Positions 26,955 through 31,755 are shown, counted from the stretch's first letter. The stretch: 64,000 nt of DNA from an uncultured Pseudomonadales bacterium (GCA_947503335.1 CANNCY010000001.1:1090958-1154957); one strand, 5' to 3'. The notes: a model not told the origin generated them from the letters alone. Numbers and translations are program-made.

Positions 26955-27515
26955 CTATTTGGGCAAACAGCTTTCGATAATCTTATATAGCTCTGGCCTA
27001 TGCGTGGCCACTTCGTCGATGCTCAGGCCCTCTAGTGAATGAGGGTACTTAAGCCATTCTTCAGTTGTGTGTAAAAAGTAGTCAGGCTGTATCTGGGTCA
27101 AGCGCCTAGCTGGCTTATAGTAGGGTACAGCCACCTTAATTTGCTCGGGCGTATTCGCCCTAGCCTTGGCCTTCAACTCGCCAATTACTGCCTCTAATGT
27201 TCGCCCTGTATCAAACACATCATCAACAATTAGCAGGCGATCACTGTGAGTGCAGGTTTCTACCAAATAGCTTAAACCGTGTACCTGCACCTGATCACTA
27301 CGACCATCAATACCCTCATACGACGAAGTTCTTATGGCAATGTGATCACTGTGCACCCCTTGATAGGCAAAGTATTCTTGCACCGCAATACCAATGGGCA
27401 CACCGCCTCGCCATAACGCTACAATCATCGTTGGCTCAAAACCATCTCTATAGATAGTATCGGCTAGCTTGTACGAGTCTTCTAATAGCGATTGCGCACT
27501 AAGATAAGTTTTCAC
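26955..27515 (-). CDS. Type I phosphoribosyltransferase (xanthine/guanine/hypoxanthine PRT-like), paralogue A
   Basis: WRGG, PRPP loop LLIVDDVFDTGRT. Start set at GTG 27515 by alignment with paralogue B; ORF-track 27629 would overlap the divergent gene. Confidence 0.85.
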   Translation of the reverse strand: MKTYLSAQSLLEDSYKLADTIYRDGFEPTMIVALWRGGVPIGIAVQEYFAYQGVHSDHIAIRTSSYEGIDGRSDQVQVHGLSYLVETCTHSDRLLIVDDVFDTGRTLEAVIGELKAKARANTPEQIKVAVPYYKPARRLTQIQPDYFLHTTEEWLKYPHSLEGLSIDEVATHRPELYKIIESCLPK

Positions 27516-27593
27516 AGATATTCTCAGTAGTTGTATGGCCGTAGTATAATGATTTGGCCCTAGATCAAGCCACCTATTTTTGATGCAATTTAT

Positions 27594-28160
27594 ATGAGCA
27601 AAGCCAAGCAATTTATTAGCGAACAACAACTATTAGAAGACGCCTATACGCTGGCCGTGGCCATATACAAAAGCGGTTTTGTACCCAATTTTATTGTGGG
27701 TGTTTGGCGTGGCGGCTCTACAGTTGGTATCTATGTGCAAGAGTGCCTCCAGTATCTGGGCATTCATACTGATCACATCGCTATTCGCACGAGCTACGAG
27801 GGCGTCGAAAGCTACCACCAGCAATTAGACAACGCCAACATTCGAGTTCATGGCTTGCGATACCTTCACGAGCGAGTAAATGCTAATGATCGCCTACTTA
27901 TCGTTGATGACGTTTACGCATCGGGCCGACATATTGAGGCAGTGATAAACCGACTAAAGCTAAAAAGCAAAAGAAACTGCCCCGACGACATTCGCGTCGC
28001 CGCGCCCTACTTTAAACCAACTCAACTACAAACTGACCGCAAGCCAGATTTTTATCTGCACGAAACCAATGACTGGCTGGTGCTGCCTTACGAACTTACG
28101 GGGCTAACAAAAGAAGAGCTTGCCGAACACAAGCCCTGGGTACATCAGCTGATTAGCTAA
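27594..28160 (+). CDS. Type I phosphoribosyltransferase, paralogue B
   Basis: WRGG, DHIAIRTS, variant PRPP loop LLIVDDVYASGRH. Confidence 0.85.
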   Translation: MSKAKQFISEQQLLEDAYTLAVAIYKSGFVPNFIVGVWRGGSTVGIYVQECLQYLGIHTDHIAIRTSYEGVESYHQQLDNANIRVHGLRYLHERVNANDRLLIVDDVYASGRHIEAVINRLKLKSKRNCPDDIRVAAPYFKPTQLQTDRKPDFYLHETNDWLVLPYELTGLTKEELAEHKPWVHQLIS

Positions 28161-28176: not shown

Positions 28177-28599
28177 CTAAGCGGGCTCTGTTAGAAACCG
28201 CTCGGCTTGCTGACGCATCTCGCCGTCGATAGCGGTTGCCTTGCGAGCCGCCATATCAAACAGTACCGAAGTACTCTCAAGTGTTGCTGCCACTTCATTA
28301 CGGCTTAGGTTGTGCATTGTGTATTTAGCGGTTGCAGACTTACCACCTAAACGAACAAACTCGGCAGTCACTGCCAACAAATCGCCCGAACCAACCTCAG
28401 CAGCATATTCAATCACGTGCTTTACGTCGGCCCAACCAAGCTGCAGCTCGGCCGCTTGCTCTGGGGTCCAACCAAACACCTTAAATAAAAAGTGATAACT
28501 AGCATCGTCAAACATCGCAACGTAGTGGCGAGTTGTCATATGCCCCATAACGTCGCACAACCAAGGATGTGCAACGCCTTGATAAACTGCGTCTTTCAT
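28177..28599 (-). CDS. Acyl-CoA thioesterase (4HBT hotdog fold)
   Basis: WLCDVMGHMTTRHYVAMFDDA; GKSATAKY hotdog pattern; shares a base with the MarR stop. Confidence 0.85.
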   Translation of the reverse strand: MKDAVYQGVAHPWLCDVMGHMTTRHYVAMFDDASYHFLFKVFGWTPEQAAELQLGWADVKHVIEYAAEVGSGDLLAVTAEFVRLGGKSATAKYTMHNLSRNEVAATLESTSVLFDMAARKATAIDGEMRQQAERFLTEPA

Positions 28600-29132
28600 T
28601 ATTTTTGATTCTCTAAAGAAAGGTCTATTACGTTAGCAACTTGGCCAACGGTATTTGATTCTGGCTGAACTGGGCTACCGAGATCTAGCAATGGCGCAGC
28701 ATCAATGTCTTCTGCATCCATCATTGAGGCAACACGTTGAAGAGAGGCCAATATCATGCTTTTTTCCCACTCTTCTAGTTTCTCGAAGCGGTTAGCAAAA
28801 CGATCTTGCAACGGCGTCGGTGCGCTCGCTAGCACCGACTCGCCCGTTTCAGTTAAGAAAGCGTGCACCTTGCGACGATCTTGGCTAGAGCGCTCTCGAT
28901 AAACCAAACCTTTCGATACCAAACGATCGATAATGGTAGTAACCGTAGCCTGGCTGAGATTAACTTCACCTGCGATGGTGCCAATGGTAACAGGCGAATG
29001 CTGAGCAATCGCCTTTAATACCAATATCTGAGGGGCTGTGTAGCCTGAAGTTTTAACCAGATGCTTCGAATGCAGATCTGTTGCGCGAATAACACGTCGC
29101 AAACAAACCAGCACTTCGTCAATTCGATCCAT
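28599..29132 (-). CDS. MarR-family regulator of the CosR/EctR type
   Basis: MDRIDEVLVCLRRVIRATDLHSK...LSQATVTTIIDRL...DRRKVH...APTPLQDRF...WEKSMILASLQRVASMMDAEDIDAAPLL matches the CosR/EctR1 pattern as recalled. Confidence 0.8.
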   Translation of the reverse strand: MDRIDEVLVCLRRVIRATDLHSKHLVKTSGYTAPQILVLKAIAQHSPVTIGTIAGEVNLSQATVTTIIDRLVSKGLVYRERSSQDRRKVHAFLTETGESVLASAPTPLQDRFANRFEKLEEWEKSMILASLQRVASMMDAEDIDAAPLLDLGSPVQPESNTVGQVANVIDLSLENQK

Positions 29133-29154
29133 AAAGCACTGCCTAAATTAGTTA

Positions 29155-30072
29155 TTAGCTTGCAGAGCGCAGTTTAGCGGCACTTTCTTGTTTTACCAAG
29201 CCCAAGCTTTCGCGTGACTCTTGAGCGGTTTGTACCGAAGCACCCATCAACTCAAGAATTTTGCGCGCGCGCTCTACCAACTGAACGTTTGTAGCGAGCT
29301 CGCCCTTAGCCAAGTATAGGTTGTCTTCAAGACCAACGCGCACGTTGCCACCTAGTATCGCCGCCTGAGCCACCATGGGCATCTCTTGCGCACCAATGCC
29401 AAAGCCTGCCCAGTTAGAACCTTCTGGCAAGTTACTTACCATCGTCTGAAAGTTTTGAGTGGTTGCCTCTGCGCCCCATTTGATACCCATACATAGCTGG
29501 AATAATGGAGGTGCGTCTAACAAACCCTCTGCCATCATCTGCTTAGCAAACCAGATATGACCTAAGTCGAACACTTCAAGCTCAGGCTTCACACCAATCT
29601 CTTGAAGACGCTTAGCCCCTTCTCGCAACATGCCTGTTGAAGACACATACACATAGTTATCGATGTTGTAATTGAACGAGCCGCAGTCTAGCGAGCAGAT
29701 CTCGGGCAACAGCATCTCAACATGCTCTTGACGTGCCTTTTGGCCAATCAGGTCGGTGTAAGAATCAAGATTCAACGGTTCATCATCAGGGCCCAAGTAA
29801 AGATCACCACCCATACCGGTGGTTAAATTGATAACAACATCAGTGTCTGCGTCACGGATGCGATCAACCACTTCGGCATAAAGCTTTACTTCACGAGACG
29901 GTGCGCCAGTTTTAGGGTCACGTACGTGGATGTGAACAACACCTGCGCCTGCTTTAGTCACCTCAATGGCTTCTTTAGCAATCTGTTCAGGGGTTATAGG
30001 AAGATGAGGTGTTTTATTTGCTGTATCACCTGAGCCAGTAATCGCTGCGGTGATGATTGGGCTTCTATTCAT
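29155..30072 (-). CDS. Beta-keto acid cleavage enzyme (BKACE/DUF849), CdhC-like
   Basis: ITAAITGSGD, HIHVRDP (Zn His pair), NLTTGMGGDL, LPEICSLDCG, KPELEVFD, GGNVRVGLEDN. Start set at ATG 30072 (MNRSPIITAA) rather than 30192. Confidence 0.88.
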   Translation of the reverse strand: MNRSPIITAAITGSGDTANKTPHLPITPEQIAKEAIEVTKAGAGVVHIHVRDPKTGAPSREVKLYAEVVDRIRDADTDVVINLTTGMGGDLYLGPDDEPLNLDSYTDLIGQKARQEHVEMLLPEICSLDCGSFNYNIDNYVYVSSTGMLREGAKRLQEIGVKPELEVFDLGHIWFAKQMMAEGLLDAPPLFQLCMGIKWGAEATTQNFQTMVSNLPEGSNWAGFGIGAQEMPMVAQAAILGGNVRVGLEDNLYLAKGELATNVQLVERARKILELMGASVQTAQESRESLGLVKQESAAKLRSAS

Positions 30073-30080
30073 AGAAATAT

Positions 30081-30092
30081 TTTGAGATCTAT
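30081..30092. promoter_or_regulatory. Candidate CosR/EctR-type operator 1
   Basis: TTTGA-GA-TCTAT, 9-20 nt upstream of the BKACE ATG. Confidence 0.45.
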
Positions 30093-30207
30093 ACAATTTA
30101 ATTCGAAATTTAAAGCAAAAATCAGAAAAATCTTCGAAGACCCTACAAAAAACACTGAAATTATGCGTTCTTTGACTGACTAAGTTATCCAACCAACCCT
30201 TGCGAAT

Positions 30208-30225
30208 TGTTTAGTAGTCTAACTA
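30208..30225. promoter_or_regulatory. Candidate CosR/EctR-type operator 2
   Basis: TGTTTAGT-AG-TCTAACTA; core TTAGT-AG-TCTAA is one mismatch from a perfect palindrome. Confidence 0.5.
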
Positions 30226-30312: not shown

Positions 30313-31755
30313 ATGCGCTTACTCAAGACAGCCTTAATTTTAATCGCTAGCATCATCGCGGTGATCACGTTTAACACCATCCAATACACTACCAATGACC
30401 ACGAACCTGCTGCCTTCGAGCCGGTTAACGTCAACGAACATCGCTCTTTAGAGCGCCTATCAAGCGCCATTCAGATCAAGACCATATCTGGCCAAGGGAT
30501 AGAACCGTTCAAGCAATTGCACCAACTACTTAGCACGCAGTTTTCAGCGGTTTTCGCAACGCTCGAAGCCAGCACGTTAAACGAAGGCACTCTAGTTCTT
30601 GTTTGGCATGGCAAGGACACCTCGTTAGACCCTATTGTATGGCTAGCGCATCAAGACGTTGTTCCCGTCGAAGCGGCGTCTATAGACAAGTGGCGCTTTG
30701 CACCGTTCTCAGGAACACTTGCTGATGGCCTTATTTGGGGTCGTGGCACGCTAGACGACAAAGGCTCGGTGATGGCAATTTTTGAAGCGCTCGATCTATT
30801 AGTAACCGAAGGCTTCAGACCGAATCGAACGATGCACTTTGTTTTTGGTCATGACGAAGAAATTGGTGGCGAGCTAGGTGCAAAAGCTTATGCGCAAAAG
30901 ATGCACGAACAAGGCACACGCTATGAATACGCCCTTGATGAAGGAAGCGTGATTACTCGCATGGTACCAGGGGTTAACAGTGCAGTAGCGTTAATCAGCA
31001 CCACAGAGCGCGGATATTTGTCACTAAAACTAAGCACCACCGATACCGGTGGCCATTCTTCGACACCGAGCGGATATCCGGCTATATTTCGCCTTGCTAA
31101 CGCTCTTTCTAAATTAGCTCACCACCCCTTTGCCGCAGACCTTAGTGACATCAGCGCAACGATGAAAGCGCTAGGTAACAAGCTGCCCTGGTATTACCGA
31201 GCTATTTTTGCAAATGAATGGCTTTTTGCGGGCGCAATCAATCAAATGATGCAGTCGTCTGGGGCATTAAACGCCGGCATTAGAACCACCATTGCCCCAA
31301 CGATGCTAAAGGCAGGCGTTAAAGACAACGTGCTACCAACCTACGCAGAAGCAGTAATCAATTTAAGACTGTTCCCGGGTGATACCACCCAATCAGCAAT
31401 TGAAAAAGTTAGAACACTGATCAACGATGACAGCATTGTAATCGCTCCGTATGAAGGCGACTTCGGTAGTGAAGCCCCGACCCCATCAAGCACTGACGCA
31501 CAAGCCTATAAAAGTTTAGTGACGGCTATCGAGAAAAGTTATGACGGCGAAATTAGCGTTGCCCCACGCATCATGATTGGCGCCGCAGACATTCGTCATT
31601 TCACGCACCTTACCGACAACCATTATCGATTCATCGCCGCCGAATTAGATCAGTCGATGATTGACGGCTTTCACGGTATAAACGAGCGCCTGCCCGAAAC
31701 CAGTTATATACGTATGATTAGAATGTATTACCACCTAGCAAAACAAAACAACTAG
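30313..31755 (+). CDS. M20-family metallopeptidase (Gly-Xaa carboxypeptidase-like)
   Basis: N-terminal anchor; LAHQDVVP, WGRGTLDDKG, GHDEEIGG, LDEG, GGHSS, HGINER. Confidence 0.88.
   Translation: MRLLKTALILIASIIAVITFNTIQYTTNDHEPAAFEPVNVNEHRSLERLSSAIQIKTISGQGIEPFKQLHQLLSTQFSAVFATLEASTLNEGTLVLVWHGKDTSLDPIVWLAHQDVVPVEAASIDKWRFAPFSGTLADGLIWGRGTLDDKGSVMAIFEALDLLVTEGFRPNRTMHFVFGHDEEIGGELGAKAYAQKMHEQGTRYEYALDEGSVITRMVPGVNSAVALISTTERGYLSLKLSTTDTGGHSSTPSGYPAIFRLANALSKLAHHPFAADLSDISATMKALGNKLPWYYRAIFANEWLFAGAINQMMQSSGALNAGIRTTIAPTMLKAGVKDNVLPTYAEAVINLRLFPGDTTQSAIEKVRTLINDDSIVIAPYEGDFGSEAPTPSSTDAQAYKSLVTAIEKSYDGEISVAPRIMIGAADIRHFTHLTDNHYRFIAAELDQSMIDGFHGINERLPETSYIRMIRMYYHLAKQNN

Follow-up and report, generated by a model that had tools for sequence, protein, structure and literature searches.

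The stretch of DNA analysed here is a window of 64,000 nucleotides (C1:1090958-1154957) from the genome of an uncultured Pseudomonadales bacterium, a 3.22-Mb assembly, 99.4% complete, that is the sole member of its genus and family among the genomes compared. Its minus strand carries three closely packed genes, encoding an enzyme of the BKACE family, a MarR-type repressor orthologous to the ectoine regulator EctR and a hotdog-fold acyl-CoA thioesterase, with two predicted operators of the EctR type in the spacer upstream. The locus combines two known systems, EctR/CosR osmoregulation and the cdh-type route from carnitine to glycine betaine. Its central elements are listed below, with positions counted from the first letter of the window.

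29155-30072, minus strand: BKACE, 305 aa; Pfam PF05853, E 2.2e-97
28599-29132, minus strand: EctR-orthologous MarR repressor, lying between both enzyme genes, 177 aa; Pfam PF01047, E 2.6e-17
28177-28599, minus strand: hotdog-fold 4HBT_2 acyl-CoA thioesterase, 140 aa; PF13279, E 1.5e-14
30076-30097, no strand: predicted proximal operator O1, EctR-type, AATATTTTGAGATCTATACAAT; genome-wide matrix rank 1, 20.2 bits
30206-30227, no strand: predicted distal operator O2, EctR-type, ATTGTTTAGTAGTCTAACTATT; genome-wide matrix rank 3, 16.4 bits
30216-30244, minus strand: sigma-70-like promoter candidate; -35 hexamer TTGAAA at 30244-30239, 17-nt spacer, -10 hexamer TAGACT at 30221-30216

Operon structure, operators and conservation

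Open reading frames and Pfam profiles bear out the arrangement given in the initial annotation of this DNA, namely three minus-strand genes with a 22-bp gap, from the BKACE stop (29155) to the MarR start (29132), and a 1-bp overlap, the single base common to the MarR stop and the thioesterase start (taATG at 28599). The same annotation extended the locus to 30225, which overshoots the BKACE start at ATG 30072. The longest BKACE reading frame, which is also the public gene call, opens with a TTG at 30192 and would encode 345 aa; since close homologues are all 305 aa long and align from residue 1, the ATG at 30072 is almost certainly the true start. The 40-codon extension implied by the TTG (30073-30192) is unconserved in homologues and spans operator O1. 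That the three genes constitute one autoregulated operon is well supported.

Operators were sought with a 22-bp palindromic matrix built from 70 ectA-ectR spacers (consensus AATATTTAGTGCACTAAATATT, 21 bits). It agrees with a published account of the EctR1 operator, an AT-rich pseudo-palindrome in which 2 bp separate two half-sites of 8 bp each (PMC5924519). Across all 3.22 million positions of the genome just 3 reach 14 bits or more, and those ranked 1 and 3 both fall within one 240-bp spacer upstream of the BKACE gene; the probability of the top match alone landing there is ~7e-5. O1 ends 3 nt upstream of the BKACE ATG, and O2 lies 130 bp upstream of O1 and 86 bp before a divergent peptidase gene. 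The locus thus presents an 8+2+8 AT-rich pseudo-palindrome at the promoter of the putative target, with O2 overlapping the -10 hexamer of the promoter-like site, an overlap that mirrors the EctR1 footprint reported over a -10 box (PMC5924519). The promoter candidate itself matches the consensus at 9/12 positions, a weak agreement that is not significant alone, and shuffled sequence yields matches to the promoter and terminator patterns at least as often.

Both operators are kept on the two related contigs that include the upstream spacer (L033 and L034), where the scores exceed those of the window: the proximal site reaches 25.6 bits on each, in the same place as O1, and the distal site, 131 bp away from it, reaches 24.3 and 23.1 bits, respectively. 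No EctR-type site was found at BKACE-thioesterase loci without the MarR gene (G054, Oceanicaulis and L023). It is well supported that predicted operators of the EctR type sit on the operon promoter, and repression of the operon by the window MarR, through binding to O1 and O2, is probable.

Many ectA-ectR spacers (loci L053-L131) themselves contain two EctR-type sites, either overlapping at a 14-bp offset or ~108-130 bp apart, and the 130-bp spacing of O1 and O2 resembles that of a whole transplanted ectR-ectA control region. The match of rank 2 (18.6 bits; C3:322818-322839, locus L048 10819-10840) was set aside as an EctR operator. It is a near-perfect palindrome, ATTGTATTGTGTACAATATAAT, with a different core (TTG..CAA), upstream of genes for a 160-aa protein of unknown family and a 137-aa MarR paralogue; a gene for a CHASE3 hybrid histidine kinase is transcribed away from them, and a BetT-like BCCT gene follows at a distance of ~1.8 kb. 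The palindrome probably serves as the operator of the paralogue itself.

The BKACE-MarR-thioesterase triad recurs on four other independent metagenomic contigs (L033, L034, L216/L217 and L218) at 70-85% protein identity. All MarR homologues at least 70% identical to that of the window belong to such triads, while the next-best homologue (P0126, 68%) adjoins ectABC, as do named relatives at 58-67%. The five triad MarR proteins make up one clade, supported by an SH-like approximate likelihood ratio test (SH-aLRT) value of 92, inside the EctR family. Comparison of these sequences gives good support for a conserved arrangement with a single origin.

Two further features flank the operon:

28115-28137, minus strand: terminator-like hairpin followed by a T-run, candidate transcript end; pattern match only
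30313-31755, plus strand: divergent M20-family peptidase; Pfam M20, NCBIfam PRK08262 family

The hairpin, found by pattern scan, lies 40 bp 3' of the thioesterase stop, inside the 3' end of a convergent phosphoribosyltransferase gene. That gene is one of two phosphoribosyltransferase paralogues (~50% identical), overlapping and divergently transcribed, that directly follow the operon (26955-28160); the triad on contig L216 is also adjoined by one such gene. On the other side, the M20 peptidase shares the operator-bearing spacer, and contigs L033 and L034 keep the synteny of M20 gene and triad. As a member of the pathway the peptidase was rejected: no homologue adjoins any other BKACE locus of the subclade described below as clade A, and it probably stands outside the pathway.

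The EctR-type regulator and the missing ectoine genes

Homologues of the window MarR number in the thousands, at identities of 58-77%, and the 80 best relatives in named genomes (58-67% identical) were surveyed. They include proteins from Microbulbifer, Halieaceae, Porticoccaceae, Reinekea, Bermanella, Methylophaga and Methylococcaceae, the last two groups at 61-63% identity. In 70 of these 80 the gene stands divergently to ectA(BC-ask), as is classical for EctR, and in three it adjoins a BCCT gene in the manner of CosR; in none does it adjoin a BKACE or a thioesterase of the window type. The recognition helix, LSQATVTTI, is invariant across the family, and the window protein, which has the MarR winged-helix domain, is nested among EctR-family relatives in the tree. 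The initial annotation had proposed a CosR/EctR-like MarR and named clustering outside that group as evidence to the contrary; the protein falls inside the EctR family, and its standing as an EctR orthologue and true member of the EctR/CosR family is, by sequence comparison, well supported. It is orthologous to regulators linked to ectABC(-ask) or bcct, and adjoins neither kind of gene here, the BCCT genes of this genome being on other contigs.

Neither ectA nor ectC was found in the genome, by tblastn with Microbulbifer proteins and by a PF06339 search; the same queries gave matches at 64-70 of 80 control loci. Single-copy EctR orthologues occur in 27 of 60 family representatives of the order, and G054, the nearest genome to share the BKACE-thioesterase pair, encodes its EctR elsewhere.

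Compared with EctR1 and the ectABC-ask operon of Methylomicrobium alcaliphilum, and with EctR of Methylophaga (Mustakhimov et al. 2010; review in PMC5924519), the window system has an orthologous regulator, the same type of operator, overlap with a -10 box and a layout permitting autoregulation. The systems differ in that the target here is a BKACE-thioesterase pair and theirs is ectoine biosynthesis, and in that the window regulator is encoded inside its target operon, in a genome without ect genes, whereas theirs is divergent. Vibrio CosR, reportedly ~50% identical to EctR1, represses betaine synthesis and BCCT genes, and its regulon comprises ectABC-asp, betIBA-proXWV, bcct and proVWX (bioRxiv 10.1101/845297; Shikuma et al. 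2013). Belonging to the same MarR subfamily as the window regulator, it provides a precedent for repression of several compatible-solute systems, including betaine synthesis from choline. Unlike the case proposed here, CosR has no described target among carnitine or BKACE genes, and cosR is divergent from bcct, whereas no operator was detected by either BCCT gene of the window genome. None of the publications searched links EctR or CosR to a BKACE or a carnitine operon.

The enzymes, their relatives and the proposed betaine route

The BKACE scores 326 bits against PF05853 (DUF849; cut-off 24.8) over profile positions 3-274 of 274, and is the only BKACE in the genome. Its translation contains the segments GMGGDL, LPEICSLDC and GGNVRVGLEDN that the initial annotation had quoted in likening it to CdhC. 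In an alignment with the solved Kce structure 2Y7D, HIHVRD, ELEVF and GGNVRVGLEDN fall on the corresponding motifs, and they supply the His-x-His, the catalytic Glu and the Arg...Glu-Asp residues to which Bellinzoni et al. 2011 reportedly assign zinc-binding and catalytic roles. The best solved relative is 3C6C (E 2.5e-90). BKACEs reportedly divide into the ASMC groups G1-G7 of Bastard et al. 2014; judged by its motifs, the window enzyme is catalytically complete and lies outside the inactive G7-type group. A statement in one preprint names G5 as the carnitine group.

In a 90-sequence tree, examined together with the neighbourhoods of 80 named loci, the window BKACE falls inside an 87-sequence radiation dominated by BKACEs encoded beside carnitine dehydrogenase. 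Within this radiation it belongs to a subclade of 29 sequences with SH-aLRT 99, here called clade A, whose members are 63-81% identical to it. Canonical BKACEs (clade B), which make up most of the radiation, are 54-62% identical to the window protein in the tree (51-62% across the canonical loci compared), and their loci encode an HCDH-type carnitine dehydrogenase, often with a CdhR-like AraC/GATase regulator and often with a CdhB-like thioesterase; G045 and G048 carry such canonical cdh loci within the same order. None of the 29 clade-A BKACEs has an adjacent HCDH dehydrogenase. The two clades have 99 conserved columns in common and differ at four fixed positions (clade A/canonical: F133/L, Y135/F, F208/M and E230/Q), of which the first two fall in the conserved motif SLDCGS(F/L)N(Y/F), which may face the substrate. 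As to the likeness to CdhC, membership of the carnitine-type radiation is supported, and within it the enzyme belongs to a separate subclade with its own fixed residues and no neighbouring dehydrogenase. A protein 69% identical to the window BKACE carries the JGI label 3-dehydrocarnitine:acetyl-CoA trimethylamine transferase, and several homologues are mislabelled 'NADPH:quinone reductase' in public records.

The thioesterase has the hotdog 4HBT_2 fold, with YbaW/FadM (1NJK) as its nearest solved structure. Its best NCBIfam match is the C-terminal thioesterase domain of the long form of carnitine 3-dehydrogenase (PRK07531, positions 352-472, E 3.8e-8), a profile that a CdhB-like thioesterase used for comparison matches at 1.6e-33. 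Genes of the window type, at 46-61% identity, directly adjoin the clade-A BKACE at 24 of 28 named loci and in G054; for 27 of the 29 clade-A sequences the thioesterase gene comes directly after the BKACE gene or, in the triads, with only the MarR gene between. We propose that the thioesterase hydrolyses the acyl-CoA product of the BKACE, which would be betainyl-CoA if the substrate is dehydrocarnitine.

The initial annotation was right that the window itself holds neither a carnitine dehydrogenase nor a transporter, and candidates lie elsewhere in the genome. Contig C4 carries, in order, a gene for a TonB-dependent receptor, an operon for a short-chain dehydrogenase/reductase (SDR) and a zinc-type alcohol dehydrogenase (ZnADH), and a BCCT gene with a promoter of its own, with terminators between these units. 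The cassette products are 54%, 60% and 48% identical to those of genes flanking the BKACE-thioesterase pair in Oceanicaulis, where the order is SDR-ZnADH-esterase-BCCT-BKACE-thioesterase. The proposed search for BCCT or CaiX carriers turned up BCCT genes on C3 and C4: the C4 protein scores best as a CaiT carnitine/gamma-butyrobetaine antiporter and the C3 protein is BetT-like. The C4 SDR resembles 3-hydroxybutyrate dehydrogenases. Carnitine is 3-hydroxy-4-trimethylaminobutyrate, and an SDR of the 3-hydroxybutyrate-dehydrogenase type would be a chemically sensible scaffold for its oxidation.

Clade-A loci carry varying combinations of an SDR, a quinone-oxidoreductase-like ZnADH, a type-B carboxylesterase, a BCCT carrier and a TauD-family oxygenase. 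The SDR-ZnADH-(type-B carboxylesterase)-BCCT cassette travels with carnitine-type BKACEs across Alpha- and Gammaproteobacteria (the window genome, G000, C4:234165-237671, locus L046 8165-11671; L022; L237 in G054; L236 in G052; L137), either fused to the BKACE-thioesterase locus or on a separate contig. In G054 it is likewise unlinked to the BKACE. In G052 it lies a few kilobases from a canonical pair of BKACE and HCDH dehydrogenase, a proximity that ties it to carnitine-type metabolism. A ZnADH orthologue of at least 69% identity is present in 3/7 genomes with a carnitine-type BKACE and in 0/54 without.

A TauD-family oxygenase gene follows the BKACE-thioesterase pair in metagenome-assembled genomes of Woeseiaceae and Chromatiales (L023, L141, L143, L144, L146, L147, L149 and L161). 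The window genome's orthologue (60-64%) is at C4:195674-196735 (L047 7672-8769), in a separate cluster with a GlcD-like FAD oxidase, a MAPEG protein, an aldo-keto reductase and a fatty-acid hydroxylase. Its identification as a gamma-butyrobetaine hydroxylase was unsupported: it resembles none of the solved BBOX structures and lacks an NCBIfam match.

As for other sources and fates of betaine, no betIBA-type choline cluster was found in the genome, which has a lone GMC oxidoreductase below the betA cut-off and neither betB nor betI, and no dimethylglycine/sarcosine dehydrogenase with an FAO_M domain was found. In a genome without ectoine synthesis, betIBA or FAO_M, betaine derived from precursors is a plausible main osmolyte; the lack of the FAO_M domain also makes downstream demethylation of betaine look incomplete. 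Two GbcA-like Rieske oxygenases are present, both far below the family cut-off. One of them, at C7:34680-39104 (259 bits against a cut-off of 670), adjoins a secreted FAD amine-oxidase-like protein, and the pair is divergent from genes for a class-III alcohol dehydrogenase and S-formylglutathione hydrolase, which serve formaldehyde detoxification. This layout suggests an N-demethylase releasing formaldehyde, and some demethylation of methylamines may take place.

A close known system is the caiX-cdhCAB-hocS carnitine operon of Pseudomonas aeruginosa, which serves both osmoprotection and nutrition and is substrate-induced under the control of CdhR (PMC5806209). The window locus resembles it in having a BKACE from the same radiation and, within the operon, a gene for a hotdog thioesterase; relatives of the window locus are likewise associated with an esterase and a quaternary-amine transporter, and the product would again be glycine betaine, serving osmoprotection and nutrition. 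The window locus differs in that the window genome has no HCDH-type CdhA and its thioesterase is not orthologous to CdhB, in that transport would be by a BCCT carrier instead of CaiX/CbcWV, in that the putative pathway genes of the window genome are spread over two contigs, and in that an embedded EctR-type MarR repressor takes the place of a divergent AraC/GATase-type activator. A genomic island of Arctic SAR11 carries BBOX, CDH, BKACE and ACOT (PMC12421898), and SAR11 BKACE loci of this kind appear in the 90-sequence tree. The island is comparable in pairing a marine BKACE with an acyl-CoA thioesterase and in yielding betaine from carnitine or gamma-butyrobetaine; unlike the window locus, the SAR11 loci have an HCDH carnitine dehydrogenase, fall outside clade A and have no embedded MarR gene.

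A proposed osmoregulated route and its alternatives

In the scheme that we infer, the lineage would have lost its ectoine genes, and ectR with two EctR operators would have come to be placed on the BKACE-thioesterase pair. An EctR dimer would bind O2, over the -10 box, and O1, abutting the start codon, and would thereby repress the BKACE gene, its own gene and the thioesterase gene; repression would be relieved by the EctR/CosR signal, which is presumed to have to do with high osmolarity or ionic strength. A keto acid would be supplied from the other contig, through import by the CaiT-like BCCT carrier and oxidation by the SDR and/or the ZnADH. The BKACE would then combine this beta-keto acid, which would carry a cationic head group and is most likely 3-dehydrocarnitine, with acetyl-CoA to give acetoacetate and betainyl-CoA, and the thioesterase would release free glycine betaine from betainyl-CoA and so render the reaction irreversible.

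For the whole statement, an EctR-repressed operon making betaine from a carnitine-derived keto acid under salt-stress control, we put the probability at roughly 0.5. Its parts are not equally firm: the balance tips modestly towards the enzymes converting a carnitine-derived beta-keto acid into glycine betaine and acetoacetate, and the odds that salinity is the signal appear even. The initial annotation had suggested an osmo-regulated route from carnitine to glycine betaine, an idea that is partly supported, with good support for the identity of the regulator and the autoregulation of the operon. The chief departures from that picture are the missing classical carnitine dehydrogenase, a thioesterase without orthology to CdhB, a BKACE of a distinct subclade and likely partner genes that lie on a different contig, beyond EctR control.

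Several observations weigh against the scheme. The carnitine dehydrogenase whose absence the initial annotation would have counted against its proposal was indeed not found: HCDH-type matches in the genome are limited to FadB/FadJ-like proteins of at most 81 bits, and none was found in G054, the other clade-A genome searched whole, whereas the same search gave 278-499 bits beside the BKACE in canonical cdh genomes. The first step of a carnitine route is thereby left without an assigned enzyme, and the SDR need not be a substitute, as the SDR cassette of G052 coexists with an HCDH dehydrogenase. The thioesterase has no detectable pairwise similarity to the CdhB-like thioesterase (BLASTP E = 2) and is not an orthologue of CdhB. 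The four fixed differences of clade A mean that the substrate could differ. EctR operators were looked for without success at both BCCT genes, at the SDR-ZnADH operon and at the TauD gene, so that EctR control would reach only the last two steps and not the putative uptake and dehydrogenase genes. The BKACE ATG has no recognisable Shine-Dalgarno sequence, in the window or in relatives. Finally, the signal of EctR/CosR has not been identified even in model species (PMC5924519; bioRxiv 10.1101/845297).

The same enzymes and operators would also fit an embedded EctR descendant that is now pathway-specific and responds to a ligand such as carnitine, dehydrocarnitine, an acyl-CoA or glycine betaine, in a nutrient-catabolic module in which salinity plays no part. 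Many MarR proteins are ligand-gated, a regulator encoded within a catabolic operon is what substrate-inducible systems typically show, and the canonical carnitine operon is induced by substrate via CdhR (PMC5806209). The triad MarR clade is, moreover, separate and somewhat divergent, with at most 68% identity to ectA-linked EctRs against 70-77% among its members, and the GbcA-like Rieske oxygenase beside formaldehyde-detoxification genes implies that betaine-type compounds may also be eaten. Set against this, the DNA-reading helix and the operator type are the same as in osmoregulatory EctRs, work on CosR/EctR in model species has revealed neither a ligand nor a pocket for one (bioRxiv 10.1101/845297), and the shortage of other osmolyte routes in the genome makes precursor-derived betaine a plausible main osmolyte; we consider the catabolic explanation somewhat unlikely. 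More sceptical still would be to regard the MarR gene as a chance insertion between two enzyme genes and the palindromes as ordinary sequence of an AT-rich spacer. The spacer is AT-rich, and promoter and terminator patterns are no commoner than in shuffled sequence, but two of the three best matches in the genome would hardly share 240 bp by accident, contigs with ~80% protein identity keep both the positions of the sites and the order of the genes, and the sites are absent from loci that have no MarR gene. Chance is, on these grounds, highly improbable.

In a further alternative, which concerns the chemistry, the clade-A BKACE and thioesterase would act on a different beta-keto acid and produce another solute. 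Candidates would be other quaternary-ammonium or sulfonium beta-hydroxy acids imported by BCCT carriers, such as gonyol. The HCDH dehydrogenase missing from both clade-A genomes searched whole, the lack of orthology to CdhB and the fixed differences in a possibly substrate-facing motif, together with the Q-to-E change, all speak for this, as do accessory genes unlike those of described carnitine loci (SDR, ZnADH and type-B carboxylesterase, as well as a member of the TauD family whose sequence is not BBOX-like). Yet clade A is nested within the dehydrogenase-linked radiation and shares 99 conserved columns with its canonical members, the SDR-ZnADH-esterase-BCCT cassette also occurs beside a canonical pair of BKACE and dehydrogenase, the C4 carrier scores best as CaiT-like, and the esterase of these loci parallels hocS of the Pseudomonas carnitine operon (PMC5806209). 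A non-carnitine substrate is, in our judgement, unlikely. Decidedly unlikely is an undescribed marine pathway in which the clade-A BKACE, its private thioesterase and the cassette make a compatible solute on demand under EctR gating, from an imported ester or beta-hydroxy onium compound that is not necessarily carnitine and is possibly a sulfonium analogue. Were it to exist, it would amount to osmolyte production by salvage, with a dedicated osmoregulator and a single-operon regulon.

If the proposed EctR-repressed betaine operon is as we describe it, a regulator and its operators can outlive their original pathway and then attach to a different source of osmolyte. EctR/CosR repressors are widespread controllers of compatible solutes, and an EctR orthologue apparently controlling only its own small operon, in a host without ectoine synthesis, would offer a simpler system in which to find their signal. 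The locus also draws attention to a distinct BKACE-thioesterase clade, often met with among marine Gamma- and Alphaproteobacteria, which would work without the classical carnitine dehydrogenase, is linked to a conserved SDR-ZnADH-esterase-BCCT cassette, and has BKACEs that current annotation calls lysine-fermentation enzymes or quinone reductases. The pathway would thus bear on the marine turnover of carnitine-like compounds into glycine betaine.

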